Origin: Perna viridis
Lineage: Eukaryota
Direction of reading: 5' to 3'
DNA length: 64,000 nt
Assembly: GCA_037379345.1 (NCBI GenBank)
Contig: CM074511.1
Coordinates: 16,492,001-16,556,000 of the forward strand
The notes under the pieces are model-generated. The model saw only the letters and a list, made by a program, of their open reading frames with translations, was not told the DNA's origin and did not search any database. The translations under genes were made by a program, and so were the position numbers. This document shows, one piece after another, positions 10,900 to 63,020 of this stretch. The first letter of the stretch is position 1. The number at the start of each line of letters is the position of its first letter.

Positions 10900-12305
10900 T
10901 CCAGTGTGGTGGACGTTTTTTTTTTTAACAAACGGTCGGCATTCCAATGGGAACAAATTATACTCCTTAACCTATTCCTTCACTCTAATGGCCCCGTGTA
11001 GGTCCGGGTGTCAAAAGAATAGGCCTGCAGCAGCGCTAAGCTTGTCGTAAAAGGCGACCAGATAGTGCTCAGAACCCTAGCCAGGGGCTAGGGCGCTCTG
11101 CCCACAAAGCAACTGGGTTGTGTGCCCCAGGTGGTGAAATGGGTACCCCTGGTGTGTTACATGCTGGGATTGCCAGGCTATAATACGGAAAACCTGACCG
11201 CAAACCATAGTGGTGCACCGTGTTAGGAAAGATGCCACGTACCTCGCACGTTAAAGAACCCTACTGTGGTATTCTCCCGGAGTAGGAACCATAGGGCTTC
11301 GCCACAGGAGACTAAATTGTCCAACCCTACCCACCTCTCCCTATTTTCAGTGGCAATCAAAATTTGTCGACACCATTATCCTTGTGTCCCATCACATTTT
11401 TCATTTCATCATCGTTTCATGTTCATTTTATCATCCACTTCATGTTCATCGCCTGAACATAGCTGAAATATTGCTGCTCGAGCGTTAAACCCCAACAATC
11501 AATCAATCTTCACTCTTATGAGGCTGACTTTATAGCTGATCTGATCCGAAAGAAAGAATATACGTTTGGCTAGATCCTTTAATCTCAGTTTCCGCTATAT
11601 AGATGACATCCTAATTTCGGGGAATTGGTACATCGCATCTGCCCCCAAAGTCTTTGAAATAAAGGATACTACACACACACAGTGAAGTCAGCCTCATATC
11701 TTGACCTACACTTAGAAATCGATGGTAAAGGAAAACTATTGACCAAACTTTACGACAAATTTGATGACCTTTCATTCAGAATTGTCAACTTTCATCTGTG
11801 GCAACATCCCTTCAGCACCTGCGTATGGAGTGTTCATATCACAACTCACACGTTATGTCAGACCTTGCCGAAACTACGCAGACGTTTTGTATCGCACTCT
11901 AACAAATAGGCTTCTGGAACAGGGTTATGTTGCTACAAGATTGAAATCATCACTGCTGAAGTTTTATGGTCGTCATCATGAACTCGTGGATCTATTAGTG
12001 TATCCATCTGCACCACGAAAACTGATTTATTCAACGGGTCATAGATTTCATTTCCTCGTTTGTCTACCCCGGACTTGACTTTTTATGAGCAACTCGGCGG
12101 GTGTTTCTACAAAAGCAGAGGACGCTTACCCTACTGGTGCACCTGGTCCGCGCTCCGAGTTGCTCATTTGCTTTTGTTGCTTTGTATGTATGATTTTAGT
12201 TACTTTATGTTCTGTGTTGTGTATGTCTGTTTTCCATGTCTGGTCTTTGTCCCTGGATTACATTCTTTTGATTACCGCTATGACCTTGGTTCCCTTGATT
12301 ACTCT
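10900..12305 (+). mobile_element. 5'-truncated Penelope-like element (RT C-terminus plus 3' UTR) inserted in the BEL element
   Basis: QTVGIPMGTN (about 10928-10957), HSYEADFI...FRYIDD (11511-11607), SASYLDL..KLYDK, NIPSAPAYGVFISQL.RY, RLKSSL.KFYGRHHELVD. Frameshifted. Confidence 0.85.
10987..11507 (+). mobile_element. SINE-like non-autonomous retroelement, apparently complete, with 9-bp TSD CTTCACTCT
   Basis: CTTCACTCT at 10978-10986 and 11508-11516. The 3' end is CTGAAATATTGCTG..CGTTAAAC plus (CAAT)n. Two more copies occur in the window. Confidence 0.85.
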
Positions 12306-38342: not shown

Positions 38343-38349
38343 TATAAAA
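38343..38349 (+). promoter_or_regulatory. Candidate TATA box of Cys-rich peptide gene A
   Basis: TATAAAA about 120 bp upstream of the ATG. The paralog has TATAAAG at a similar distance. Confidence 0.4.
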
Positions 38350-38466: not shown

Positions 38467-39869
38467 ATGAAACTTGTGTGCGCTTTTCTTGTCCTCTGCG
38501 TGGTCACAGTAGGTTAATTATCTTTTTAGTTATCCAGAATGATCTATGAAAACCTCATTTTTAGTTTGTTTATAAATTTGTACTTAGATACGTGTAGAGA
38601 TTGATATTCTCATTAGGTTTAACTAAAGTCTTCAAGGAACACCAAAATATCTATAAATCAGCTGTGACATACAAACCCAAATTCGAGCCAAGTTTAATAT
38701 GTTCGATAATATATCTTGAAAAAAAGCCTGCTATTTCCACCTAGACGTGCTACATAATAAAGCTTACGTTAAATTGTCCTTTAATATTTAATCTGTTGAA
38801 AAGTCATTAGAAATGGAAGGCTGATAACAACATCAAGTTGTTGAAAAGATAGATTGTTAACAATGTTTAACCATTCAAAGAAAATCTTAAAATTAACAGG
38901 GAGTCAAGAACATATCTTTTTATGTTAGGTATGTTTAAAATTGTTATCAATATGTATACACCGTAGGTTTGTTTCTTTTTCGTAGGTTCAAAGATACTGA
39001 TATTTTTATATTTGTAAAAACTTCCGTATAAGTTCATAATAGTTAAATGGCATAAAAAGTCTACATGTCCATACTAGCAACTCACATGGACGCGATCATT
39101 AGATAAAACAAACAAGTAAAATTTAACACGAAGCCGTGGGCAAGTGAACCAACCGAAAAATCCTTCACAAGATACTTTGGATTTGAGTATTTTTGTACGA
39201 TTTATTTTTATTTTTTATTTATAAAATTCCTTAGTATTTGGTTTTAATGTCGGTGGTGAACATGTTTACAAGATATTGAGATTCGCAATGTTTATATGAT
39301 AAGTATCACAGATAATTTCAATCTAAATACCTGTCCATAGTCGATATAGAGAGAACATTTTCATATAACCAATTATATATCAGAATCGACAATTTTTTAT
39401 TGTGCTAGAATAATTTTTTTATCATATTTGTCGTCGTACAATTATTTCGCTTCTGACTCTTCCATTATCGTCTGTAAAGTCGATAAAATGCAGAACTTGT
39501 TCTGCATCTTTTATCGTAGCCTCATTAAAATCAAGATGTTGTTTCCTGAAAGTAATACATTGTAATTTCATTCTGTTGTAGAACGTAACTGGCCAAACCC
39601 GAGAATGCACAAAATCTTCGGAATGCTACTCGAATGAGTGCTGTATAGAAAATAGATACCGAAAGCGATTGATCCTCGGAGACCAAAAAGGAATTTGTCG
39701 CCCACTTCGTAAAAGTTTGGAAAGATGTGATCCAATCGATGCAACATCTAGAAGCAATCCAAATTTGCGTGCAATTGAGTGTCCTTGTGAGCCAGGGCTT
39801 ATCTGTCACAGTACTGGTTTCTTTACCGCAGCTCATCGTTCTTTCTGCATTCATGATAATACTAAATAA
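38467..39869 (+). CDS. Secreted prokineticin/astakine (colipase-fold) 10-Cys protein A, 109 aa. Exons 38467-38508, 39582-39869
   Basis: Signal-peptide exon MKLVCAFLVLCVVT|gtaggt and a phase-0 intron. Exon 2 reads NVTGQTRECTKSSECYSNECCIENRYRKRLILGDQKGIC...CDP...ECPCEPGLIC...FC, with spacing C-x5-C-x4-CC...C-x9-C...CPC-x5-C...C. Confidence 0.88.
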
Positions 39870-40444
39870 ATTGTATTTACATGTATATATTCTCTACATT
39901 TCGAAGTTAAGTGAAAATTCAAATTAATGTTAATCGTTACTCCATTACAGAGAACTGTGATGATATCAGTCGGGTTTCATAAAAATTACATGTAAATAAG
40001 GCACTCTAAAATTGTTGTTACTACTGCAAAAATAAGATAGCCTGAATGTTTTGATCGAAGAATTTACTTGTAAAATTAATTATATACCCCTCCAAGTTGT
40101 GATTATTTATGTTAATCGAACAAGGAAACAAACGACACAACCGATTGATTTCTTCTACATTCGTCAGAAAAAAATTACACTTTCATCACCTGTGTTGTAA
40201 TTATGATCTTAGCCAATTATCAACGTCAAAAAACGCTAAGTAGGAAGAAAAATATGTAAGAACACTATTGCTTGATAAAGTTGATTGCATGATTGCATAC
40301 TGAAAAAATCCAGATTTATCAACTAAAATACTCGGTTTTAGCCGTATCGGTGTTGTCTTAATTTCTGCGTTCACGATTTTTTTCTCCATATGTTGTAATT
40401 CTGGTGATCCTGGTGTTGTTTTGTTAAAGGAAGAAAGCATACAT

Positions 40445-40655
40445 GGTAGAAAAAAAATCAGAACCTATTTCAAAATTCAAACGTGAACTAAAACAAAATG
40501 GATCATTAAATAATATTCATGTCCTATTACACTTCTCGTGTGGGTCTAGAAGATTAAACATTTTGCTAACGCAGCTGTGATGATCGGCTTCATTCCTGAA
40601 TTGCGACCTTTTTCTCGTCAACATCATTAACAATTGTGGTTGTCAATGTGGACAG
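40445..40655 (+). mobile_element. CR1-like LINE 3' fragment
   Basis: Translates GSRRLNILLTQL..SASFLNCDLFLVNIINNCGCQCG, typical of a CR1-group ORF2 C-terminus. Contains stops. Confidence 0.55.
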
Positions 40656-41473
40656 TTATCTACAAGGTATGTTATACTTTAGTAGATGCAAAATGTGCCG
40701 AGTTTGTTATATATTGAGTTAAAAGCCGTGGAGGTTCGATATTTGGTCTTAGAAATCTTGTATTTAATGTTCTTACTCGTTATTGTATTAATTGGGTAGT
40801 CAAATTTAAACGATATAATGCCACTGTAAAGAAAACAACATTTGTACGTGTAATATTAATATAAAAATAAAACATGTCAATAAAAATGAATAAACAATAT
40901 TAAAATAGTAAACTCTTATTATAATTAACCTGAGCAATAGCAAAGTCTTTAAATTGAATCAAATATATTAGCCATGACTAAATCTATAAAAAAAATTCAT
41001 CATTAAACATTTCCAACCATTCTAGCTATCTGGTTGGTCAGTAATATGATTGAAGACGTTTCTTATTAGGTAGGTTATTACTCATGGCAAGGAGATTTCG
41101 TCATTGGAATTAAAATGCAGGTAAATTCTTATAGGATACCATTTATACATAAGCTGAAGAATAAGGGCGCCCACAATATCAGTATTGCATTTCATTGTCA
41201 TCACACTGTGTAACGAATTAAAAAAACTAATCTTAACAAATAAAATTTTCATTGAGTAACAATTCATTCGCTAACTGTTCTCTCTATGTTCCATATCAGA
41301 GCAAGGGAATGATTAATTCTAAAGGTATATACACCCAAAAGGTACGTCAACGCTTTTCATGTTGAAAAAAAGTAAACAATTTTTTATCCAAGTTTATATT
41401 TAAAATGTTATGTTTATTATCAAACGTTGATTTTCAACGTGCACTTGTTCAAATTAACCTACATGTTTTATAT

Positions 41474-41480
41474 TATAAAG
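41474..41480 (+). promoter_or_regulatory. Candidate TATA box of Cys-rich peptide gene B
   Basis: TATAAAG about 114 bp upstream of ATG 41588. CTTATCTTG (GATA-like) precedes the ATG in both paralogs. Confidence 0.35.
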
Positions 41481-41587
41481 GTCACATGTGATTTTGTTGA
41501 TCTTATGAAAAGGTTTGTAACTAGACCAATACTTTGACGTAATAAACACTCGCCTTATCTTGTCTTGATATATCGGTACATGAAACC

Positions 41588-44500
41588 ATGAAGCTACTTG
41601 TATCTGGTTTGATCGCTTTTTGTTTTATTACAGTAAGTCAGTTAAATATGGTGTTAAATTACACATATATATATATAGGTTACAGTTCTTAACAATTCTG
41701 CTTTGAGCATGTATTTTATTGATCGATATTGTTAGTCAACAAAAGAGGTCTGGCTGAAGGCTGTTATTATTCATCTTGGTACATACCCGATCAATGCGGG
41801 ATGTGGGTTCTACGGAGCCCCAAATGTACTGGGGTGCGATACTGTAAAAGTCAATTTTGGTCATAGTAGATATCGTAATATAAAAAAATCGTCTAAACAA
41901 TTTGTCATTTTAACTAAAATGCCTTACATCTGTACTGTAAGCCTAAATAAATGTTCATTCCGACCTCATATATGTGATGTACCATAATTTGACCATTTAT
42001 TGAACATACTACGCCATTCAAAGAAAAAACCCCGATTTTTTCAAGAGTTTACCATAAAAAGTGGAATACTAAACAACTAAGTCAATGAAAAGTTTAAAAT
42101 CTTTCAGATTTATCATTAATTATTTTCCCATTGAAACATAAATAGCAACAATTCCAAATATAAATTGAAAAACACGAAACAGTCTTTAGATCCGGTGTTG
42201 TCATATTTATCATATTTAAACATTCGAGCATTAGCGTATAGCTGTGGGTGTAACGCGAGAGTTAACATATGGTTATGTGCCAGTTGAGATGTGTTTTCAT
42301 ACAATTAATCGTTTTTCACAAATTACGAAATTCAAAAGTTTAAAAATATTTTATTTTAGTAAAGAGGGTACAGTTTTCTTTTAAATGTCTAAAACATTGT
42401 AATATTGTGTAATACATTCTAACCTATGGTCATTTAAATGCAAAGATACAAATATGATGTTGGGTATTTCCTTCACCAATCGGCCCGGTCGGTGGGGGGA
42501 CATAAAATTTCACATCTTTTAACAACCATTTCTTGAGGTCTTGTTCATATTTATGTCTCTGATGACACAACATTGCACGATCGTCGAGCACTCTGACACA
42601 GCATAGTACGATCGTCTTGCATTCTGAGCAAATTTCGGAAAGTTCGACGAAAGTGTTTCATTCCTAGTGTTTGCAAATAGCATCTATCATCAATTTAAAC
42701 GCTGAATTGGGAAAAGGCGACGTTCTGTTAATCTACTAAATTTTCTACGACCGCAACGCTCAAACCTGTCCTGTTTTTTTTCTCTTGTATTGTTTTAAGT
42801 TTCCTTTATTCATTTTGTTGAATTTTCTTGTTTTTTTCTTGTATCATTACACAATAAAAACCATCATAACATCAAAACCTAAGAATTTCCAAAAATTAAA
42901 TAAAAAGTTAATTAATACCACTTGGGTGGTATCTACTACAAATAGTTAATGTTACGTAAAACGTATGTTAACTTTGCCATTGTTCCAGATAAACTATCGC
43001 AGTAGAGTAAACTTTACCTAACTCAACCATGATTGCAGTTACACTATTCAACGTTAACACAGCTCACATCAAATATAGTGCATTGGAAAATGAAAATACC
43101 TTTAAAATTTATTATATCTTTTTGAAAACTGATTTTATTTTCTTTTTTTGCTTTTTGATAACATCGAATGGAACAAGGCACAACTGTATTAATAACATTT
43201 TTTTAAATACTCGTTTGAAGGAAATACAATGAATATTGAATTATTATTTTCTTTCAATTTCATATGATAGTTCTAACGCGTCATGAATACTCATTGTGAT
43301 GTCTTTATGTTTATTTTGTTGAATAATATTAAGTTAAGTTTTAAAAGAACGTTTTCTGTTACCTTAACATTTTCTGGATGTATAGTACAAAAAGATGTTG
43401 TACGCTCAAAACAATTATATTGCGCACAAAGATTAGACATTGCGCACTCAAAATAATTGTGTGCTCAATATAAAATATCGAATACACACACTGATTCAGC
43501 ATCTATTGCTTAGAAAACGTTTTATATCTTCTTTATAAAATCAATTTCTAAAACACACCTTCCATAAATCAAATACATAAAACTAACATCGAGTTGATAC
43601 CACGGTGGTTCCCCAGAGATCTTGAAAATGGTTAGTTTAAACATATCTATTAAGTAATTTGTATATTTTAAAACCATTGGCAAGCCAAAACAGTGGAATG
43701 AAACGGTCAATAGAAAATTAATTACAAGATTCAGAAACAACAGAAACAATTACAGAATTAAGAAACAACTTAATTACAGGATTCAGAAACAACAAAGTCA
43801 GAAACAGAAATATCATTGATATGTAGCATAGCTCAAGGAAGTAGTACTCTAGTGCTCATAACCTGCATTTGGTGAGTTTGGTGCAAAGTGAAGAGGTTGA
43901 CATTTAATGCTTTATGCATTTACTCACGTCATAAGGATTTTTCAAAATTATTCAAAAGAAGTAACTGTGTAATTTAGGTTGTCAATTTGATGCGTTTGTT
44001 CTGTATCAAAAAGTTTTGAACCTTGGTAAACATTTCAACGCTATACTCACCAGACATGTCATCTGATCCAAATATGAGAAGATTTGAAGTCAGTTGATCA
44101 GGAAGTTGAAGTGCTCAGCACTGCTGAGATATGTGTCTCCTAAGCAATTGGTATAATGGACAAAAGAGTAGGAAGTGACTAGCAGATTCCATTTCGCCAC
44201 ATTGGCATAATGGGGATGGGATTTTTATTTAGCTCGCTACACTGAAGACGAAATTCGACATGTAGGATTTGACCTCTGCGTGATCCGCAATAGTTATATA
44301 TTGGTTTTTTGACTACCTCATTTTCGAGATGAGTTTTGAAGATTTTTACAAATGGCGAGGTCTTAATATCATTTGGTAATGTCTTACATATAATCGAGTA
44401 GAGGAAGGTAGAAAATAATTAGAATATTGGTATGTTCTACAATAAATTAATTGGATTAGGTCAGAATTACTAGTTGGGTAGTTATGGAATTGGTTTACTC

Positions 44501-47064
44501 TATTAGGAATCAGATTTTGAAGATAAGGCGGTGTCATAATGTTCAAAATCTTGTACATAAGTGTTAATTTGTGAATTTCTTACCGAACACATAATTTCTG
44601 CCATCCAGTTTCTATATTTTGAGTTTTAGAATAGCAGTGTTTGTATCCCATATTACATCGGCATATTCAAGAATCGGTCTAATAAAAGTTATGTAAAGTT
44701 TTTCAAGGGTTTGTCTATCCAAAATTACTTTAAATTTTCGTAATATATTTAAACGATTGTATGCTTTGGTTGTAACCATATCAATATGACTATTCCATCC
44801 AACATCATCAGATGTTGTAAGTATAATGTCATCTTGTTTCGACCTTTGTAGTGAAACAAACATTTAGTATAATATAAGCTGAGACATTGGTTGTAGGATA
44901 ATTCCGTCTCAGTATGATTCGAATCTGCTTAACGACTTTTGTTGTATTCTAAGTAAAAGTATTAGCATATACAAATGCCAGTACCGAAGATGAAATAAAG
45001 AACTTAAAAAAATAACCTACGTTTTATTGAGCTATTAATTAAAGGTGAGATTTCAAACTGATATGGGTAGAATAACTATAGGTATTTAGTTTTGTATAAC
45101 TCTTTAAAAGTTTCAGCTTTCCAACAATAAAAACTTGCACACCAATTAATATCATTTCTATTTTTTGTAGTGCAGGATTTTTTCAGTATGACTGTATGTT
45201 TGTATTGTAGGTCCTATTAGCGTTTGACCATTAAATTGATTAAAATCATATGCATGCATTAAAAAATTGAAGGATTTGAGAATATACACAACTTATACTA
45301 GATGGTTCATGAAACCCAGTTTGCAATATATTTGGCTTTCAAAATTTAATTACTCGTGCAGGTCCGGGTGTTAAAAGAATAGGCCTGCAGCAGCGCTAAG
45401 CTTGTCGTAAAAGGCGACTAAATAGTGCTCAGAACTCTAGGCAGGGGCTAGGGCGCTCTGCCCACAGAGCAACTGGGATGTGTGCCCCAGGTGGTGGAAT
45501 GGGGTACCCCTGGCGTGTTACATTCTGGGGTTGTCAGGCTATAATACGGAAAACCTGACCGCAAACCATAGCGGTGCACCGTGTTGGGAAAGATGGCACG
45601 TTCCTCGCACGTTAAAGAACCCTACTTTGGTATTCTCCCGGAGTAGGAACCATAGGGCTCCGCCATAGGAGGCTAAATTGCCCGACCCTACCCACCTCTC
45701 CCTATTTCCAGTGGCAATCAAAATTTGTCGACCCCATTGTCATTGTGTCCCATCCCTTTTTCATTTCATCATCATTTCGTGTTCATTTTATCATCAATTT
45801 CATGTTCAAATTCTTTATTACATAACGCAATGGTGCGCCTTCGTTTTGTGTTTCCATCTTGCATCAAAGGGTAAACAACTAAAATATTCCCGAGTGAATT
45901 CATTAAGAAACACAAAGTCTATTACCAATACCTCTTTATGATGAATGTGCCAGTGATAATATATAATCAATACTGCTTAGCTTCAATTTGAAACTAAGTA
46001 AAATTTCACCTGATTCAATTGATTAATTAGAGTATTTGGTAATAAAATAGATGAAAAATAAGCATTTGACACAAAAGTCACATTACAAAACAAAATGACA
46101 TTCAGATTCACTTCTCACACACATTATAAGAAAAAAAAATCAAGTTGTCGATTTAGTAGGGTCCGTAAATTTCAGTTTTTAACTAAAAAAATAGTTTTAT
46201 ACTCAGTGACAGTGAAACAATTGGTCTTTATTGAACTAAGTTCCTTGAATAAAACTTCAAATGTTATAAATTGTCGGTTTTAAGCCTTAAGTAATAGCCA
46301 CAGCATGGTTGATTGACAAGTACATCGCATTAGTCCTGAAAAACTTGTATTTTATTTACGTATAACAACTAAAGGAGAAACCATCCAATATAAAAAGGAT
46401 AGGACTATTTTCAGATTTTGTTAAAGCAAGGCAAAGGCGAACAAAATCTATAAAAAAAATGCTTTTAGTTGAAAAAAATACGTTAAATCCTTGAGTTTGA
46501 AAGACAGATAACTTGACACCCCCAATCGAACGATTGCTTCCTTCCTGAATAACAAAAAAAAACATTGCGTACGTCGACGGCTAGTGGCTGTTAAGTATAC
46601 GCATTGCCTAATTCACGAAACCATGCTATATATAGAATATCTCTAGCGATACTTGCTTGTATATCTGACTGTTACTTACAGTTTGTCTAGATGTGTCTGC
46701 TTAAAGTCCCTGTCAATAGCACATTTAGAATGGTCGAAGAAACTGCATGAATCTTTAAAAAATACTCATTTTGTTGCAGATTTCGTGCCAAACGAGAGAG
46801 TGTACGAAGACTTCCGAATGCAGCCCAAATGAATGCTGCATGGAAAATTCAAATAGAAAGCGACTGATTTTCGGAGACGTAAAGGGACAATGTCGTGCTC
46901 TCCGAAAAGACGGTGAAAAATGTGATCCATTCGGAGCAACATCCCGAAGCAATCCCAACTTGCGTGTGATAGAGTGTCCTTGCGAGGAAGGTTTTACCTG
47001 TCACAGTGCCGGTGCTATCACAACCGCTCACAATTCATTTTGTGTCAATGGCACTAGTAAATAA
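41588..47064 (+). CDS. Secreted prokineticin/astakine (colipase-fold) 10-Cys protein B, 109 aa. Exons 41588-41632, 46780-47064
   Basis: Signal exon MKLLVSGLIAFCFIT|gtaagt, homologous in length and phase to gene A. Acceptor ttgcag|ATT. Exon 2 reads ISCQTRECTKTSECSPNECCMENSNRKRLIFGDVKGQC...CPC...FC and is clearly paralogous to A. Confidence 0.85.
43890..44863 (-). mobile_element. CR1-like LINE, decayed ORF2 3' part, in the intron of gene B
   Basis: WNSHID...KAYNRLNILRKFK..LDRQTLEKLYITFIRPILEYADVIWD, YKILN.MTPPYLQNL and CQCGEMESASHFLLFCPLY. Confidence 0.8.
45353..45810 (+). mobile_element. 3'-truncated copy of the SINE-like family
   Basis: High similarity to 10993-11447. Tail absent. Confidence 0.85.
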
Positions 47065-47288
47065 AGTGGTATTAATTTAATTATAGTATATATTACAATT
47101 TGCACATTCAAGCACAGTTTGCAAAGCTATTGTTGCAGATCGGATCTCGAACGTTGTGTTAATAGTGTAGAATATTTCATTAAAAATTTCTATCGATGTG
47201 TATTGATATCGATTGATCTCTAACTAATGCAAAAATGAAAAAAAACTTCGTCCTTTTATATTCATTATCAACAATATAGCACTTTTGC

Positions 47289-48803
47289 TATGGCAAGCCA
47301 AAGTGTACAAAATTCAATATTTTGTAATATTAGAAAATAGGTTTTTAATATTATAAAATATTTTTTAATATTAGAAATTCATTTTGTAGTATTACAAATT
47401 CAGTTTCTAATATTATAAACGCCCGATTTAGTAATATTACAAAATATCACACATTTAGTAATATTACAAATTGAATTTGTAATATTAGAAAACGAATTTG
47501 CGATATTAGAAAATGAATTTGTAATATTAAAAAATCGTAATTGAATACGACAAATCCATTTTCTAATAATAACATTTTTTTTATATTAAAAAACATACCT
47601 TTGTACTATATACACTGTGAAGTCAGCCTCATATCTTGACCTACACTTAGAAATCGATGGTTTAGGAAAACTATTGACCACACTTTACGACAAACGTGAT
47701 GACTTTTCATTCAAAATTATCAACTTTCCTTTCATCTGTGGCAACATCCCTTCGGCTCCTGCGTATGGAGTGTTCATATCACAACTCATACGTTATGCCA
47801 GAGCTTGCCGAAACTACGCAGACTTTTTGTATCGCGCTAGAATTCTAACAAATATGCTTCTGGAGCAGGGTTATGTTGCTACAAGATTGAAGTCATCATG
47901 AACTCGTGGATCGTGTGTCCATCTGCGCCATGAAAACTAATTTGTTCAACGTGTCATAGTTTTCCTTTCCTCTTTCTTCTACCCCGGACTTGACTTTTTA
48001 TGAGCAACTCCGTTTCTAGAAAAACAGAGGACGCTTATCCTACCGGTGCACCTGGTTCATGCTCCCAGTTTTTAGTGGAGTCCGATTTGCTCATTTGCTT
48101 TTGTTACTTCGTATGTATGATTTTAGTTACTTTAAGTTCTTTGTTGTGTATGTCTGTTTTCCATGTCTGGTCTTTGTAACTGGATTACATTCTTTTGATT
48201 ACCGCTATAACCTTGGTTCTCTTGATTACTATTTGTGGTACTACAAAATATTTTTTTTAGTATCAGAAAGTATTTTTTAATATTAGAAATTCATTTTGTA
48301 ATATTAAAAATTCATTTTATAATATTACAAATTCATTTTATAATACTACAAATTTATTTTCTAATATTACAAATTCCTGATTTTGTAATATTACAAAATA
48401 TCACACATTTAATAATATTACAAATTGCTTTGACTATTGGGAAATGAATTTGTTATATTATAAAATGAATTTGTAATATTAGAAAATGAATTCGTAATGT
48501 TTGAAAATTAATTTCTAATATTAAAAAATCACTTTGCAATATTGCAAAGTCAGTCACATTTTTTGATATTACAAATAAAATTTTCTGATATTCAAAAATG
48601 TTAATTGAATACAACTTATCCATTTTCTAATATTAGAAATTCAATAATTTTTTTAATACAAAAAAAAAAGATTTTTAATATTAAAAAAGGGTTTTGTAAC
48701 ATTATAAATCAAATTTGTTATATTACAAAATGAATTCGTAATATTAAAAAATCCTTTTTTAATATTAGAAAACACCCATTTCTGGCCACTTCGGCTTGCC
48801 ATA
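47289..48803. mobile_element. Non-autonomous TIR (foldback-like) element with internal AT-rich arrays of about 21-bp units and a 7-bp TSD
   Basis: TIR TATGGCAAGCC(A/G)AAGTG (16/17). CTTTTGC at 47282-47288 and 48804-48810. Repeated TAATATTA(C/G)AAA cores in both orientations. Confidence 0.85.
47616..48232 (+). mobile_element. 5'-truncated Penelope-like element nested in the TIR element
   Basis: 94-aa ORF KSASYLDL...LYDKRDDF.F.I.NFPF.CGNIPSAPAYGVFISQLIRYARAC, followed by the family 3' UTR. Confidence 0.88.
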
Positions 48804-50529: not shown

Positions 50530-53520
50530 CTAAACGTCATCACATCTTGATAACACATCTGCAACAATATTCGTCTTGCCTGCAATGTAACAAATATTAT
50601 ATTTAAATTCCTGAAGTATCAAACTCCAACGTAGTAACCGTTGGTTGGTAGTTTTCATTCTCTGTAACCACTGTAAAGGAGCGTGATCTGTATTAATAGT
50701 AAACTCTTTACCCTCAAGGAAATTTCTCAATGTTTTTACCGCCCAAATGATAGCAAAGCACTCTTTCTCCACCACTGCATAGTTGCATTCAGATCCGGAA
50801 AGTTTCTTGCTGATAAACATGATTGGATGTCTCCCATCGTCAAACTCTTGTTCAAGCACAGCACCTAGACCCTTTCCTGATGCATCAGTCTGCAAAATAA
50901 ACTTTTTAGAAAAATCTGGACTCCGTAATACAGAGTCACTACAAATACAATCTTTCAGTTTGTCAAAAGCTTTTTGTGTTGTGTCTGACCATTTAACTTT
51001 GTTTGGTGCGTTTTTCTTTGTGAGGTCAGTTAACGGTACAGATATGTCTGAAAACTGTGGTATGAATTTCCTGTAAAAGCCGATGAGACCGAGGAATGAT
51101 CTGACCTGTTTCTTAGTTACAGGTGCCGGAAACTGCCGTATAGCGGAAACTTTGTCCTGTACAGGTTTAAGCTTACCACTTCCTGCAATGTGACCTAAAA
51201 ATTCCAGCTCACCATAACCAAATAAACATTTACTTGGTTTTGCAACGAGCTTTGCCTGTCTAAGCGAATCAAATACTGCTCGTAAATGCTCAATATGATA
51301 CTCCCACGTGTCGCTAAATATGCCAATATCGTCGATGAATGAATCAGCGAACTCGTCGTACCCTGCCAAAACTTTGTCCATCATACGAACAAAAGTAGCA
51401 CCTGAATTCATCATTCCAAACGGAGCAACAGTAAACTGATAATGTCCGAACGGTGTAATAAATGCGCTCTTCTGTCGACTAGCTGAATCAAGGGGGACTT
51501 GTCAATAGCCCTTCGTTAAATCTAATTTACTTATGTATCGTGCTCTGCTGACTTTATTTAGTACTTCATCCATTCTAGGCATCAAAACCGGATCAAAGAT
51601 TGTCTGTTTGTTTAAGTCCCGATAATCGACACAAAAACGAATTGTATTGTCTTTTTTCTTAACTAATACTATAGGAGCCGCATACGGACTATCGGAAGGC
51701 TCAACAATACCTGCAGCTAACATATCATCAATCTCTTTCTTAACTTTGTCTCTAAGTGCGTATGGTACTGGATACGGACGCTTGTATATTGGTTCATCTG
51801 TTTTTGTAATTACTTTATGTTCTATAATATTGGTTACCTTAGGTACATCACTAAAGATGTCTTCATACTCAGACAGTAGTTCTTGTAGCTGTTTGTTCTC
51901 TTCAACTGTCAGCTCTTGAGAAATGTTAACATCTTCAACACTTTCTTTTCTACGTAAGACGGGAGTAATTGCTGTATTCATCTCACTGTCATCTGTACCT
52001 TCACCTGTGTTAAGACCTGAAATTACCTTTACGCACGCAGCAACATCTGCTGTAACAGTATTACCCTTATCATTATCTACCCTTTCATGCCATAATTTGA
52101 GCATATTAACATGAAATACTTTTTCTTTTCCTCCTCTTACTCTGATTTTATAGTCAACTGGACTAACTTTGTCAGTAACTTCAAACGGTCCTTTCCAACT
52201 AGCTAATAACTTTGATGTATGTGTAGGCAATAACACCAGTACTTTTTGGCCAACCTCTAACTTCCTATCTCTTGCTTTTCTATCATAGTATAGTTTTTGT
52301 CTCTGTTTTGCCTGTTTCTCGTTTCCAGTGGCATACTCAGCCATTGTTCTCATTTTTTCTCTTGTATCTAATAAATAGCTCAATACAGAATGTTGACATG
52401 TACTCGGCTCTTCCCACTCCTCTTTCAGCACCGCAAGAGGACCTCTTATATGTCTGCCATATAACAGTTCAAATGGCGAAAACCCAGTGCTCTCATTTGG
52501 CACCTCTCTATATGCAAATAATAAGTAGGGGATATATTCATCCCATGTCTTTGGCTTTGCTCTTGCATATGCTTTCAACATTTTCTTTAGTACACCATTG
52601 AACTTTTCGCAGAGTCCATTACACATTGCATGATAAGGACTAGTGTGTAATTTACTTATTTGTAGTAATCTACATACCTCAAGCATCAATTCTGACATAA
52701 AGTTACTGCCTTGGTCTGTCAACAGCTCTCTAGCTATGCCAACCCTAGAAAATAGACTTATAAGAGCATTAGCAACGGTACTAGCCTCCTGATCTTTCAA
52801 AGGAATCGCTTCAGGGTATTTAGTTGCATAATCAACGCATACTAAAATGTAACGGTTTTTGCTATCAGTCATAGGCAAAGGGCCAACAAAATCAAGAGCA
52901 ATTCGCTGGAATGGCTCATCAATAGGGGGTATGCTAATCAGAGGGGCTCGTGGTACTCTCCCCTTTGCTGTACCCATTTGACAATCGGGGCACGATCTAC
53001 AGTATTCTGCTACTTCATTAAATATACCTGGCCAGAAGAAATGCTGCATAATTCGGTCTCTTGTCTTCTTATTCCCAAGATGTCCCGCTAACGGTATATC
53101 ATGTCCTAAAGAAAGAACTGTCTCTCTCAGCTGTCGTGGTAATACAATCTGATGTATAACTTCACCACTAGGCTTCGTATACACTCTATAAAGTAAATCT
53201 GAATTGTACATGAAATACGATTGTTGATCTTGATGATCGTCACAAACATATGATCTTACCTTATCTAAAGTCTCATCACTCTTCTGTAACTTAATCAGCT
53301 GTTTCCTGTCACAAACCTTAAAATCATTAGAAATATCTGAAAATTCTATAGGTTGTGATATGGGTGTATCACCACTAAGCCTAACTGTAGTCTCACCTAT
53401 CTTCCTATCTTCTTCAACCTGCTTCTTTCTTTGAGACCGAGTCTCAACTGCATGACATGGAATCTTATGAATCCTCTGAAACAAAAACATTTTCACCTCT
53501 GGTCTCTGGTACTTCTTCAA
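50530..53520 (-). pseudogene. pol: pol (integrase-RT-RNase H) with one in-frame nonsense codon at 51502-51504
   Basis: HDIPLAGHLG..CRSCPDC, IALDFVGP, TDQGSNF, NGLCEKFN and WKGPF, then IRFCVDYRDLN, LDLTKGY*QVP (W to TGA), FIDD, QTDASG, EKEC and ADVLSR. The two ORFs are in frame (87 nt apart). Confidence 0.93.
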
Positions 53521-54847
53521 TACTAAGTGGCACTGAGATATTCACCAAGTTACCAACTATCAAATCTGCGAACGGTGTATCTAAAATCAATGTGTTAACA
53601 TCGCCTGAAATATAAGGGGTTGAAACGTTAATGCACACCTCTGGACACTGCTTCACTGTACCGTCTGCTAAACATATGTCTCTATTATGACCTGTATAAT
53701 GATCTGAGCTAGTAAATTTACTATGAACAAATACAGTAGAACACCCAGTATCTCTTAAAACAGAGATTTTATCACTGTTAATCTTACCCTCAACTATATC
53801 GAGACCATGTACCTGCACTTTGTCTCCATTACATGAAACACCCGGTAACTTAACGGTTATACCACTGATATAGTCATCAACTGTATGACCCTGCTGTGTT
53901 TGTATGCATAAACCAAACTTACTTTGCTTATTCGTGCTCTCTTTGGACTTGTTTGCTCTTGAAGAACAATTTGGTGCTATATGACCTACCTTCTTACAAA
54001 TAAAGCAAGTTCTAGTCTCTTGTCGTCTTCCTTTCTGTTGAAAATTCTTACCTTGATGCTTTGCCTGATCTGTATTTATTCTCATATATGATTGTGGTTT
54101 AGAACTAACATGTTCGATTTTATGGGCTTGCTGAAATACCTCTGCTTTTTCTATCAACTCGTCAACAGTTTTCGGTTTCTGCTCCTTAATCCAAAGTTTG
54201 AGCTCTTGACTACAACTTACCATCAACTGTTCTCTTGTTACTAAATCAATAAATTTACTAAAGTCAGTACCTATCTCTTCACGTTCCAGCCAGTGCCTAA
54301 GAAAACCTACTAATCTGACGGCATACTCCTTGAATGATTCATCAGAAGATTGCCGGGCACTTCTGAACTTCTCCCTGTATGTCTCAGCAGTGAGCTCATA
54401 TCTAGATAAAATAGCAGTCTTAATTTGACCATAATCTCTACTGTCCTCTTCTGACAATCTAGAAAACGCTTCTAAAGCTTTCCCACAAAGTAAAGGGACT
54501 AATCTAAGGGCCCATTCTGGCTTGGGTATTTTGTGTAGGGTTACTAACTTCTCAAATGACTTCAAAAATATATCTGGGTCTTGATTTTCCTGAAACTTTG
54601 GAAGTTTTGATTTCAAATGTGAACTTGTCTGAGGTTGTGCTACACCCTGAGATAATTCTTTCTCTCTAAGTTCTAGCTCTTTTAACTTTACCTCCCTCTC
54701 CATCTCAGCCCTTCTCATCTCTCTTTCGGCTGCCCTCTCTTCCCTTTCTGTCGCCTGCATGTTTCTCAACAATTCTAGGCATACCTCTACTTTTTCACCC
54801 TTCTCTAACAACTCTGTAACCCATGTTGGCAGACCACCGGTTGCCAT
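53465..54847 (-). CDS. gag: gag-protease of the Gmr1-like element (SCAN-like capsid region, CCHC knuckle, aspartic protease)
   Basis: ETYREKFRS..ESFKEYAVRL...REQL...LKLWIKEQKPKT, CFICKKVGHIAPNC and LRDTGCS. Likely start MATGG at 54847. Confidence 0.9.
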   Translation of the reverse strand: MATGGLPTWVTELLEKGEKVEVCLELLRNMQATEREERAAEREMRRAEMEREVKLKELELREKELSQGVAQPQTSSHLKSKLPKFQENQDPDIFLKSFEKLVTLHKIPKPEWALRLVPLLCGKALEAFSRLSEEDSRDYGQIKTAILSRYELTAETYREKFRSARQSSDESFKEYAVRLVGFLRHWLEREEIGTDFSKFIDLVTREQLMVSCSQELKLWIKEQKPKTVDELIEKAEVFQQAHKIEHVSSKPQSYMRINTDQAKHQGKNFQQKGRRQETRTCFICKKVGHIAPNCSSRANKSKESTNKQSKFGLCIQTQQGHTVDDYISGITVKLPGVSCNGDKVQVHGLDIVEGKINSDKISVLRDTGCSTVFVHSKFTSSDHYTGHNRDICLADGTVKQCPEVCINVSTPYISGDVNTLILDTPFADLIVGNLVNISVPLSIEEVPETRGENVFVSEDS

Positions 54848-54989
54848 ACTATATAATACAAAATACAAAAATCAAAAATCAAATAAAAAAAAAAAATCCA
54901 ACAAACATAAAATAACACAAATATGTGTCAGAATAACACTCTCTGTCTATCTCTGACAGTCAATCTAATATGACAATTGACACAGTGAC

Positions 54990-57946: not shown

Positions 57947-60900
57947 TAGATAGATAGATAGATAGATATATATCTTTATTCTCATAAACTGAACATAGTT
58001 ATAGAGAAGATCACAAAATAATATAATATATGCAGTAACTGCTGCATGTGTGGAAATACATACAATACATACATTATAATATGTTAACCAGAAGGTGCTA
58101 GCTTCGAAGAAATACGTTTGATTAATTTACATAATTTTTCAAGCTCAAAAATGTTTTCTGTTGACATGATACGACAAAAATTTAAAATATTAATACGAGT
58201 AAGATAATCTGTAGACAAATATTTACGACGCTCATTTTTAAAAGCATCACATGACACAATGAAGTTGAACTCATCGCCTATATCAGTGGAGCCACACAGG
58301 TGAGAGGATCTCTCTTCACGTGGAATATTCTGCCATCTGCCCACCTCCACAGGTAGTTGATGATTTCCACACCGAAATTTACTTAATATGAATAGGAAAT
58401 TAAATGGTAATATATTAAGATAATTTTCAAACTTAAATTCAGTCTTGTAAATTCTGTAACATAATGACTTTGATGAGTTATTAATATCTGATAACCACTC
58501 TTGTAAAAATTGATCCTTTAATTTTTGCTTAAGTGACTCAATTATCCATTCTCTTGCATACAGTTGTGTATTTTGCCAGATATTGCTCATTCCGCAATTA
58601 TCAAAAATACTTTTAATATAACAAGCCCAATTGTTTTCATACCCGTAATTCATATAATATATGTAGAGTAATCTACAAAGAATAGACGATATCTTATTCT
58701 CACTTTTATTTAACCGAATCCAAAAATCTACCATTCTCAACTTGATCTTAATAGAAAGTGGATATTGACCAAGCTCTCCGTATACCATATAATTAGGAGT
58801 TGACTGTTTTAGTCTTAAAATGTGTTTGCAAATGTGCAACTGTATTTTTTTCAATTATATTTATATTTTCAAAGCCCCATATTTCACTTCCATACAATAA
58901 TATAAAGAAATTGCCTTGTCAAACATATCAAGTTGACATCTTATTGATAAATTATTAGATCTGCATTTCTAATCACGGAGTACAACGCTTTCATAGCTTG
59001 TTCTCTGAGGTATTTTCTTGTTGCAAGAAATGAACCATTACTAGGAAAAATGATACCAAGATATTTATTTTATTTAACTATTTCCAATTCTCTTCCATTT
59101 GTATAAAACTTTAATTTTTTTGAAACTTTACCTTTGGAAAATACCATTACTTTAGTTTTATCAAAGTTAATTTTCAGCCTCCACTGATTACAATATTCTG
59201 AAGTGTCCAAAAGTAGCTGCAGATCAGTGCTTGACTCTGCAAGCAATACAGTGTCATCTGCATATAAAAGTAGAAATAATTTAAAATATAAATTCAACTC
59301 TATATCAACTTCTGTGCTAATGGACTTTAGACCATCCAGATTCGAGTTTCCCAAATACTGTTCTAATCATTAAGGTATAGTGAAAAGAGGAGAGGAGACA
59401 GGTTTTCTCCTTGTCTTACGCCAATTTCACTAGAAAAAATATCTGAGGTCTGGTTATTATATCTTACATGGGATTTTACATCATTGTATATGTTTTTTAT
59501 AACCCTAAAAAAATTACCATCAATATTATTTAAAATAAGTTTATGTAGTAAAGAATTTGTATGCACGAAATCTCGAAATCTACAAAAGTAACAAACAATC
59601 TCTTTCCTCTAAGACGAAGTAGCTCAAACAATGCATATAATGAGAAAATATGGTCAGTAGTTGAATATCCTTGCCGGAAGCCTGCCTGATTTTCATTTAA
59701 AATACTTAATTCTTCTGTAAAATTACTCAATCTTTGATTAAGAATCGACGTAAAAATCTTACCTAGACAAGACAATAAAGTAATAGGCCTATAATTTTTA
59801 GCCTCTAAAGTACTTCCTTTGTTCTTGTAAATAGGTATTATATTCCCTATCAACCAGGCCTCCGGCAGAATACCTGTGTCGAAAATTATATTGGAGAATT
59901 TTTCATAAACTTCTATCATAATGTCCAAGGACGAAGCTATATATCCATTAATAATTTTGTCTTCTTCAGGCGATTTGTTATTTTTCGCCTTTTTTTACTG
60001 CAGATAAAATCTCATCTCTAGTAATGATGCTACTAAGAGTCTCATTAATGGACTCTAAATTTAATCTACTATCAATGTCATAATCATCGGTGTGATTATT
60101 CTTATTCAAATCTTTGAAAAAGTCAAACAAAACTTCAATACTTATATCGCTTTTTCCTGCATATTCCCTTTTATTAAAAATTTTCCAAAACTATTTTGGA
60201 TTTTTACTTTTCATACATTTCATTTTCTGTCTTAGGTCTTCATTCTTTTTATTTATACTCTTATTCATAATATCTTTATAAAATTCCTCACTTTGTCTTA
60301 ATCTTTCGTTAAATAAGTTTGATCCATAATGTTTAAAAAGTCGATTAGCTTTTCTAAATTCTTTTCTAGCTTTATGACAATCTGAGTTAAACCATAATTT
60401 GTCATGTTTAATTTTTTTCTTTGAGTTATGTTCAAAATTACTCACCCCACACGTATTTCTTGCACAATCGAGTAAAATATTCGTAATTTCATTTGAGAAA
60501 CGTTCTACTTCATGCTTTAGTACATCATCTAAATTACCACTTGGTAACAATGTAAGAAGAGAATTAATTTTTTGCTGATTTAAATTACTCTTAAAACTAT
60601 TAACATTTTCAGGATTCCATTTCTTAATTCTCACTCCGGAACTTTAATTGTCCTGTATAGTATGATTAAACTTTGACTGAGCAATATTTATTTCTACACA
60701 TAAAGGAGAATGAACATCTGAAAATAAACTTGAAAAATCTAAAACTTCGAAATCATTGATACATTCTAACATACTTGATGTACACACAATATAATCTATT
60801 ACGCTGTCATGTTTTGTTGTGACTCGACCGACTATGTCCTGACCTATTCTACCATTCATTATAAAAATCTTATTGTTTTTTACAAAAATCAGTAAATTTT

Positions 60901-63020
60901 CTACCGTATGTATTTACAACTAAATCGGGATTATTTCTAATCCTTGATAAATTTAGCAAATCTAATTTTGAAACATCAGTACAATCAATATCTATTTCCG
61001 TATTGTTATCAATATAAAAATTTCCAATATCACCATAAAAATCTTTTAAACTTGCCGTTCTACTATTAAAATCTCCAAGAAGGAAAATATGATCTGTTTT
61101 TTTTTTTGGTGAAAACGTTAAATTTCAACTTCTATTTCATCAAACGCATCATCCGATGCATATTTCGTATTAATGGGTGGTATATATACAATACCAAAAA
61201 TTATATTTTCTTCTATACCATAAACAGTTTTATCTACTTGAAACCATAAGACAAAATCTGATTCAGATTCTAAAACTTTAATATATTTTTCAAAGTATTT
61301 TTTATAACCCAAGGCTAAACCGCCTGATCTAAGTAGTGAAATTTTATGCCTATTTTTAAATTTAAATATAAAGTCATCGCATTCGATCAAGTCACAATCA
61401 TCAAGTCGTGTTTCGGTAAAACACAATATATCAAATTCGTTTAACAATGACCTAAATTCAGGATATTTCAATCTACTTTTAAGTCCACATACATTCAATG
61501 ACAAAATGTTAACACTGTTATGACTGTTTTTATTTACAAAATTAGGGTCTATTGTTGAGGTACTAGACTGTTCAATATTGATCGTCTGATCTTCGGTTAA
61601 GGTTGATCGCTCTCCATGGTTGTCCTAATATGACTGGTGAAGGGGGTCTCGACGGGGTCGTCCAGAGTCTCTAGTTTTCGGTCGTGCTCCTTGGCCTTCA
61701 TATCGTTGTCGCAGGTTGTCACCATTAATGTCATTTGTTTCCATTCGCATTCTATTGTGTTTAACAGAGGGGAAAACTTCCGTGCCATCAACATATAATC
61801 GATCTCGTTTAAAATGAGCCTTCTTATTTTGACGTCTAGCTTCTTGAAATTGTGGCCATAATTCTTTCCGTTTATCGTTTACTTCTTTCGGAAATTGTTC
61901 CGTAGACGGTTCCCTTAAGCTCTTTTGCGGATTTTCGGACACGCTCTCGCTCCTTAAAGTTTCGAAATCGGCAAACAATTGATTTTGTCGTATACTTAAC
62001 ATTTCCGCTTCGATCTTTAATCTCGTATTCTTTTCCGAATCTGTGCGCTCTATGATAAGCCCCTATTTCATCCATTTTCAATTGTCTAAACATGAAATCG
62101 TCAAGTACTTTTTCGGTGTCATCAGAAGATTCATATTTGTTCGGCATGGAAATTCCGGTAAAAATGAGATTTTCCCGCATTTATCGTGTTTGAAGGTCAA
62201 TGTGTCTATTGTGAAGTTCCTGTAAATCAGTTTTCATTTGACCCATGTTTTTGCACATTTCAAAATTATCTGCTTTAATTTCTGTTAGTAAAGATTTTAC
62301 TTCTCGGACTTCGGATTTACTATATTCAAAAGTTTCGTTGATGAAATTCACACCCTTCTCTATATCGTCTACTCTTTTGGTAACATTTTCAACAGTTGTC
62401 GTCAGATTTTTAACTGTCTTGTCAAACGAGGTAAGTTTTTCTGTGAGTGAATCAATGGCCGACAGTTTATCACAAATTTCGTTGAGTTTCATAGATAAAT
62501 TGTCTAGTTTTGTGTCTGTATCTCTTGCATCGGTCTGAAAGTGATTTTGTTGCATAGGCGGTATCAAACTGTGTGGTTTACTAGTATAGAAACCGACACA
62601 CGGAGAGGTGGGCCACTGATGATAATTTGGAGGAGGTATTCGAGGCGGGACAGGCAGCTGTTGGAATTGCTGGAATTGTGGTATATACTGCTGTTGTGGG
62701 ATTGTAGAATCAAGCATTGCTGGGTTGGGGCTAGACATTTCGTTAGTTTGTGTATTGATCTTTTCGGGTTTATTTACATGTGGTTTAGTTGAGTGGGTTT
62801 GGTGAGACTATTCGATTTCTTATTTGGTTTTTCATCGCTGACATTACCCTCTGTTTTTTAACTTTTACGAATTTTCTTGGCTTCATTTGGCTTAAACTTT
62901 GGTCCCATTAAGATCCACAGATATCAGAAATGATAGAAAACACTAAAAAGTTCATTATAAACAGCTTTCACAATATTTCTTTTCCTTTCTTTATCGGAGA
63001 GAAAAAAAAGTCCGTCATTT
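57947..63020 (-). mobile_element. Near full-length decayed non-LTR retrotransposon (ORF1 plus APE-RT ORF2; probably RTE-X-like) with (TCTA)n tail
   Basis: ORF1: coiled coil, RENLIFTGI, HRAHRFG, EQFPKEV (61625-62908). ORF2: SLNVCGL/FTET/GDFN/SDVH endonuclease, YRPITLLS, QAGFR, GVRQGENLSP, YADD, and C-terminal KFRCGNH.LPVEVGRW..GDEF. AATAAA and a tetranucleotide tail at 57947-57980. Multiple frameshifts. The 5' end is approximate. Confidence 0.9.

Follow-up and report, generated by a model that had tools for sequence, protein, structure and literature searches.

Spiralian animals possess catalogued prokineticin-like peptides (De Oliveira et al. 2019, PMC6425005; Cragi-prokineticins 1-5, PMC8398477; Thiel et al. 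2021, PMC8557429), which are treated in the accessible parts of these reports as single 10-Cys peptides, with an internal site left undiscussed. Other described relatives are the vertebrate AVIT proteins (prokineticins 1 and 2, here PK1 and PK2; Bv8, PDB 2KRA; MIT1, 1IMT; PF06607), the arthropod astakines (Pacifastacus astakine 1/2a, shrimp and insect forms) and the oyster CgAstakine. Two genes of this kind were analysed in a 64,000-nucleotide stretch of Perna viridis DNA (contig CM074511.1; G000:C1:16492001-16556000), hereafter the window, to which all positions below refer unless a contig is given. They are ordinary new members of the already catalogued spiralian family, with its 10-Cys spacing and a predicted signal peptide and without AVIT or AVITGA. 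What is of note is family-wide rather than local: within the colipase fold lies a conserved dibasic site, probably processed, that none of the examined astakines and chordate proteins has. As the best explanation, to which a probability of about 0.42 is given, both proteins would be cut there to a disulfide-linked two-chain form, acting as a local signal through the hydrophobic N-terminus that the cut sets free.

Two spliced genes and their family

Both genes are real, spliced and intact, and lie on the + strand of AT-rich animal DNA. In gene 1 the first coding exon (38467..38508) supplies 14 codons of the predicted signal peptide and ends at a GTAGGT donor. A phase 0 GT..AG intron of 1073 bases follows (38509..39581), and exon 2 (39582..39869) encodes the end of the signal peptide and the mature 10-Cys domain from Gln 39594 to the stop codon. 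Gene 2 has 15 signal-peptide codons and a GTAAGT donor in exon 1 (41588..41632), a phase 0 GT..AG intron of 5147 bases (41633..46779) and the mature 10-Cys domain from Gln 46789 to the stop in exon 2 (46780..47064). Both introns are skipped by contigs of four public runs from four studies, which are RNA-like by guess, none being recorded as RNA; joint 38508>39582 was present in all four runs and joint 41632>46780 in three of them. No sequence words of the genes were found in runs X21-X24, which says nothing on tissue.

Each gene specifies a frame of 109 amino acids with ten Cys in a mature part of 91. The QTREC start and the 10-Cys spacing described in the initial annotation were seen in both frames. 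The 18-residue N-termini are hydrophobic (mean Kyte-Doolittle value 2.58 for gene 1 and 2.51 for gene 2 over residues 3-15) and end in small residues before Gln. The signal peptide would presumably be removed there and the Gln converted to pyroglutamate. The exon-2 translations are 66-68% identical, and the ratio of nonsynonymous to synonymous change (dN/dS) was about 0.10 over 87 codons, a rough value as the proportion of synonymous differences (pS 0.70) is near saturation. Only exon 2 is similar between the two loci, and the duplication is therefore not a recent one.

A full protein scan returned 22 proteins at E<=0.001, and of the ten that were looked up, those with a name came from oyster, zebra mussel, unionids, abalone, limpet, sea slug and Lingula. 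A word-index search with gene 1 as sole query gave no candidate, whereas the full scan and profiles did find relatives. By phmmer, E was 5e-30 to P0003 and 1.6e-9 to P0006, an oyster 'Prokineticin domain-containing protein', and the top Atlas match was 'Astakine-like' with a score of 0.89. P0003 and P0025 are 61-69% identical to the window proteins. A deep-sea mussel record in the supplement of PMC6425005, bathymodiolusPlatifrons.49966-0.17, is near-identical to these two by eye and reads KR-FIFGE at the site; the window pair, by contrast, carries one more Arg ahead of the site and, behind it, Leu in place of Phe.

Against the Pfam family PF06607 (Prokineticin), gene 1 scored 17.9 bits (E 0.0039), under the gathering score of 21.6, and gene 2 gave only Colipase_C (E 0.031); at E<=0.01, PF06607 was matched by 8 of the 15 rows of alignment A2. 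The profile made from these 15 rows matched Bv8 (E 7.6e-8), MIT1 (2.6e-6) and also Dkk1, and colipase weakly (E 0.09). The earlier assignment to an AVIT-less family of prokineticin/colipase fold is borne out by these profile matches and by the predicted fold.

The order of the profile matches bears on one competing explanation, by which the proteins would be colipase-like gut cofactors from the digestive gland, nicked by a convertase or a trypsin-like protease, the freed hydrophobic triplet anchoring them to lipid droplets or membranes. Oyster members of the family, which may or may not belong to the subfamily of the pair, are expressed mainly in the digestive gland (PMC8398477). Bv8 and MIT1 stand far above colipase in the profile, and vertebrate prokineticins do not stimulate lipase (PMC8877203). 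This explanation appears the least probable of those considered here.

A colipase/prokineticin fold is predicted for both proteins. The gene 1 model reached a pLDDT (predicted local distance difference test) of 74.5 and the gene 2 model, which is weaker, 61.9. With the former, the best Foldseek rows were MIT1 (E 1.3e-3, probability 1.0; E 0.001 was not reached), and structural matches were obtained to the spider U33-theraphotoxin-Cg1c (2N8K, Z 7.3), colipase (6.7), cysteine-rich domain 2 of Dickkopf (Dkk1, 6.7) and Bv8 (5.6), values that are modest and well above rank 5. Dickkopf proteins have two cysteine-rich domains (PMC6425005), whereas the window proteins are single domains of 109 amino acids, and 2N8K is described with a different N-terminal core (10.1101/485722). 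The structure prediction is consistent with the fold expected in the initial annotation and places the site in low-confidence coil.

The cysteine spacing and predicted fold are those of vertebrate AVIT proteins as well. In contrast to these, the pair lacks AVITG (a feature taken from PMC8877203), starting instead with QTREC, falls below the Pfam cut-off, and has no Trp in either exon-2 translation and therefore none in the first loop. The loop after the paired cysteines (CC) exceeds that of Bv8, MIT1 and Dkk1 by 6-9 residues, and by 6 residues that of the vertebrate AVIT proteins. With the astakines and CgAstakine the pair has an AVIT-less prokineticin domain in common. In arthropod astakines that loop spans 10-12 residues, mostly with a single R-Y/F-S and with no KR or RR in 17 of 17 records (PMC6425005), while the pair has 17 residues with RKR. 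As to function, one review questions whether the apple-snail protein has a clear haematopoietic role (PMC9178244).

Several candidates were set aside. P0011 was a low-complexity false match, and P0004 and P0058 are without the first four-cysteine pattern; none of the three provided rows in the site counts. A venom role was rejected because the toxin fold matches reflect a common scaffold and 'toxin CSTX-20-like' is an automatic name carried by abalone and oyster proteins.

The dibasic site across the family

The letters YRKR-LILGD (39657-39683) and NRKR-LIFGD (46852-46878) are present in the 17-residue loop after CC, as first reported. RKR, the candidate convertase site, lies at 39660..39668 in gene 1 and 46855..46863 in gene 2; LILGD (39669..39683) and LIFGD (46864..46878) would be the new N-termini after a cut. 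Between the two genes, RKRLI has been kept through three silent changes. In both models the loop is a low-confidence coil between two strands, which is not proof of exposure; the site falls in the lowest-confidence coil of the gene 1 model (residues 27-30) and within coil 25-32 of the gene 2 model. An RGD-like integrin motif was rejected, as the actual letters are L/F-G-D and the Asp varies in relatives.

Within the window pair alone, the site is weak evidence: in 20,000 Cys-fixed shuffles, KR or RR arose in that loop by chance in 26% and 17% of cases for the two proteins. Across 37 complete domains, KR or RR was found in the loop after CC in 34, in the next short segment in 4 and in neither of the two other long inter-cysteine segments of similar length (0/37 and 0/37). 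This confinement puts the site beyond chance family-wide. In the dereplicated set, to which the exons from contig C9 and P0059 were added and from which 6 near-duplicates of 51 rows were dropped, 41 of 45 domains carry it.

A count by eye in supplement 3 of PMC6425005 (parts 56-57 of 400; four unrelated records and one header without sequence left out) gave the site in 34 of 48 spiralian, 0 of 17 arthropod and 0 of 11 chordate records, a spiralian record being scored positive when at least one of its domains has it. The positive records come from rotifer, bryozoan, entoproct, phoronid, brachiopod, chiton, monoplacophoran, gastropod and bivalve.

The same site recurs among the paralogs in the genome. 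Three more prokineticin-like genes lie 18-29 kb beyond the right end of the window (G000:C1:16573968-16584696; L003, L004, L006, L007), making a five-gene cluster; two are on the + strand (SKR-FLDE and TRR-FLFE) and one, with three exons, is on the - strand (GRKR-FLFH), and all three have KR or RR followed by F in the first loop. A second set is found on C9 at 28.63 Mb, 31.64-31.65 Mb and 32.33 Mb (L011-L013, L015, L016, L018, L021-L024), where Gly precedes the basic run in all six first-half exons and four have furin-type runs. Together with the window pair, 11 of 11 paralog exons found carry KR or RR in that first loop. The true numbers in the 723-Mb genome may be higher, these counts being lower bounds, and the exon models outside the window rest on sequence only. 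The site is therefore not special to the pair, as had been supposed at first.

What is conserved is narrower than the RKR initially proposed. KR or RR is kept in 41 of 45 domains, while the triplet varies in the closest relatives (NKR, HKR, LKR and SKR). The loops that bear the site span 15-27 residues. At the 41 sites, Gly stands directly before the basic run in 29, Gln after it in 10 and both in 9; basic runs of three to five residues occur at 19 and the furin consensus at 20. The residue after the site (P1') is F in 14, Q in 10, S in 5, A in 5, L in 3 and another residue in 4.

At 15 of 41 sites the next three residues are hydrophobic, and Gly stands fourth in only 6, which does not support a hydrophobic-Gly terminus as the conserved feature. 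The triplet, usually F-I/L-F, marks the subfamily of the pair; the closest relatives P0003 and P0059 read F-I-F-G-E and F-L-F-G-E, and in the clade of the pair the triplet has been retained by bivalves, abalone and limpets; chiton records show it as well (PMC6425005). In a loop-removed tree of 34 domains, the pair belongs to a 16-row clade (96/94) with mostly hydrophobic residues after the site, and the other clade, of 18 rows, shows Gly-basic-Q/S/A. The tree was built without P0004, P0011, P0013, P0020, P0021, P0055, P0057, P0058, P0059, gene 5 and the C9 exons. As its root is a midpoint only, the derivation of Leu after the site from Phe is a matter of parsimony.

The second conserved stretch proposed initially, ATSRSNPNLR, was described as invariant, which does not extend beyond the pair. 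It lies between Cys6 and Cys7 in gene 1 (39741..39770) and recurs in gene 2 (46936..46965) with 4 of 10 codons silently different. P0003 and P0059 have ATSRDNPNLY and the third paralog AVSRDNPNLR, so it was rejected as a family motif; S-R-x-N-P-N-L is common to all five rows of alignment A3.

Proposed processing of the site and its alternatives

A Gly before a dibasic site is an amidation signal (PMC3061863). The main argument for processing is that Gly before the site and Gln after it recur while loop length and flanks vary. Gln after a dibasic cut is the usual pyroglutamate start. With these signatures present family-wide, the case is stronger than could be seen from the two genes at the outset, and convertase cleavage of these two proteins appears, from their letters, slightly favoured. 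Cleavage together with an activating role in both proteins would be a more tentative claim.

In the proposed mechanism, the signal peptide would be removed before Gln, and the site would lie on a flexible hairpin tip, both as predicted. A prohormone convertase of dibasic type (PC1/3 or PC2 kind) would cut after RKR; this kind is preferred over furin because P4 is Tyr or Asn. The basic residues would then be trimmed by a carboxypeptidase. The resulting A chain would have 22 amino acids (about 2.6 kDa in gene 1 and 2.5 kDa in gene 2) and the B chain 66 (about 7.3 and 7.0 kDa). With four Cys before the site and six after it, a cut would give two chains, as was first deduced. They would be joined by Cys2-Cys5 and Cys3-Cys7, provided that the colipase connectivity holds; the bonds of the window proteins are here assumed to follow colipase and MIT1. 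A Cys3-Cys7 bond is also given for 2N8K (10.1101/485722).

As the last and weakest step, the new L-I-L/F terminus (F-I/L-F in the subfamily), nine residues before Cys5, would dock into a cell-surface target. The hydrophobic triplet is proposed as the working end, since in the clade of the pair it persists in animals ranging from chitons and limpets to bivalves. The target would be something other than a vertebrate-type prokineticin receptor. A replacement of AVITGA at such a receptor by the new terminus is not supported, as no prokineticin receptor is known in protostomes according to the accessible parts of PMC8398477, PMC8557429 and bioRxiv 10.1101/265579. A long PK2 form, PK2L, is inactive until proteolysis, which provides a precedent in a different loop (PMC10595023).

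Insulin- and relaxin-type hormones arise by dibasic cleavage in a disulfide-closed precursor, with two inter-chain bonds and one within the short chain. If cut, the window proteins would resemble them in having two chains, two inter-chain bonds and one bond in the short chain. The fold is unrelated, there is a single site and no C-peptide, and for the pair cleavage is inferred only. The octocoral colipase-fold venom peptides differ in that they are cut between domains (PMC11896702), whereas the site of the pair is inside the domain.

Several observations weigh against cleavage and against the freed terminus. The furin rule is R-X-K/R-R (PMC3061863), and with Y-R-K-R and N-R-K-R neither window protein has Arg at P4. 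Leu, present at P1' in the pair, was seen in just 3 of 41 sites; aliphatic residues there are, as a general rule, less favoured by convertases, a rule for which no supporting paper was found. The new terminus is not conserved family-wide, P1' being F, Q, S, A, L or another residue. P0049 has RK, not RR, before its Phe, and the site is missing in 4 of 45 domains and in 14 of 48 spiralian records. In addition, the homolog query itself contains the site and the rows are related, so that nominal P values overstate the result; the record count from PMC6425005 is independent of this query and serves as a check on its bias.

The vertebrate proteins provide a further point against cleavage. Bv8 has D-G-K-R-L in its Cys6-Cys7 loop, and vertebrate PK1 and PK2 carry RKR, GKR or GRR between the same cysteines (PMC8557429 supplement), unlike the pair, in which the motif lies between Cys4 and Cys5. 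Bv8 was isolated as an 8 kDa protein (PMC10595023) and PK2 is described as an 81-amino-acid chain (PMC8877203, PMC10595023). Since these proteins are described whole despite the basic motif, a Gly-Lys-Arg in a loop of the colipase fold need not be cut. This control is not airtight, as a nicked form held by disulfides would weigh nearly the same.

These observations lend weight to an explanation in which the loop stays uncut, and its basic and hydrophobic residues, placed at the tip of the first finger, bind a receptor, a membrane or a glycan directly, as that finger does in vertebrate prokineticins. Receptor binding by prokineticins depends crucially on Trp24, which lies in the loop after CC (PMC8877203), and the arthropod astakines keep their single R-Y/F-S at the same place (PMC6425005 supplement). 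The whole chains of Bv8, PK1 and PK2, and the Leu at P1' and missing P4 Arg of the pair, would fit as well. Were the loop a binding tip, conservation of its side chains would be expected and not of a dibasic pair alone; instead, KR or RR stays while flanks and loop length vary, basic runs reach four or five residues, and Gly before the site co-occurs with Gln after it. An uncut tip is considered rather unlikely.

It is also conceivable that the site is cut and no activating terminus results. Cleavage would then loosen or inactivate the ligand, or the end of the A chain, amidated in the Gly-bearing paralogs, would be active, and the residues after the site would be incidental. The difference in P1' between the clades (F-type versus Q/S/A-type) agrees with this, as does Gly as the commonest flank before the site, although this Gly is absent in the window pair. 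The retention of the hydrophobic triplet in bivalves, abalone, limpets and chiton records speaks against it, and such an outcome seems quite improbable.

No mass-spectrometry or peptide evidence of cleaved chains was found in the literature examined, a further point against the proposed cut. The scallop and abalone ganglion peptidome papers (PMC5996578, PMC6523705) leave the family unmentioned in their main text. In Thiel et al. 2021 (PMC8557429), mass spectrometry was applied to a nemertean only, and the confirmed precursors given in the accessible text include no prokineticin. Likewise, the accessible parts of the literature yielded no text that describes an internal processing site for this family, and a published figure or supplement may mark it without comment. 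In Figure 2 of PMC8398477, likely convertase sites are coloured on a set of precursors, oyster prokineticins among them, and the supplement of Thiel et al. is said to mark predicted cleavage sites, so the site may already be marked there uncommented.

Surroundings of the genes and meaning for the family

A TATA-like box (TATAAAA, 38343..38349, +) is located 28 bases 5' of the first contig base of gene 1 (38377) and may serve as its promoter element. In both genes AATAAA overlaps the stop codon (39865..39870 and 47060..47065, +). The gene 1 contig of one run ends in poly(A) at 39885, 16 bases past the stop, which gives a very short 3' untranslated region.

The window also contains a tandem array of five large-exon MFS_1 transporter genes (7407-33501), one on the - and four on the + strand, which we take to resemble SLC46/folate-transporter-like genes. 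An interspersed repeat of about 455 bases lies in the gene 2 intron (45355-45810) and recurs at 10995-11448 as a 92.5% copy and in part at 5665-5964. Its depth in RNA-like contigs is very high, and it resembles a short interspersed element by behaviour, with no tRNA called in it. On the - strand, interrupted gag-pol-like frames of a Ty3/gypsy-type retroelement (50530-54871) and fragmented frames like those of a long interspersed element, with endonuclease and reverse transcriptase pieces (58084-62807), were assigned by reading the translations. Two similar degenerate frames (47590-47901, without a Pfam match, and 11743-12078) resemble a fragment of a Penelope/GIY-YIG-type retroelement.

Vertebrate prokineticins need a terminus that is missing from the protostome prokineticin- and astakine-related peptides (PMC8557429, PMC8398477). 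A wider proposal, more doubtful than cleavage of the pair, is that maturation resembles that of insulin in most spiralian prokineticin-like proteins: a pro-form would be cut within the colipase fold, giving two-chain ligands of two classes. The first may have a freed hydrophobic F-I/L-F terminus, as in the window pair, and the second may combine an amidated A chain with a B chain that starts with pyroglutamate or a small residue. If the proteins are uncut, the two genes simply add ordinary members to a catalogued family. If they are cut, the mature ligand would be two-chain and would not be reproduced by bacterial recombinant protein, and deorphanisation may need a different form of the ligand. 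Should most spiralian proteins be cut, the active terminus that was lost with AVITGA would be supplied in this way, and searches for the receptor would need the nicked form.

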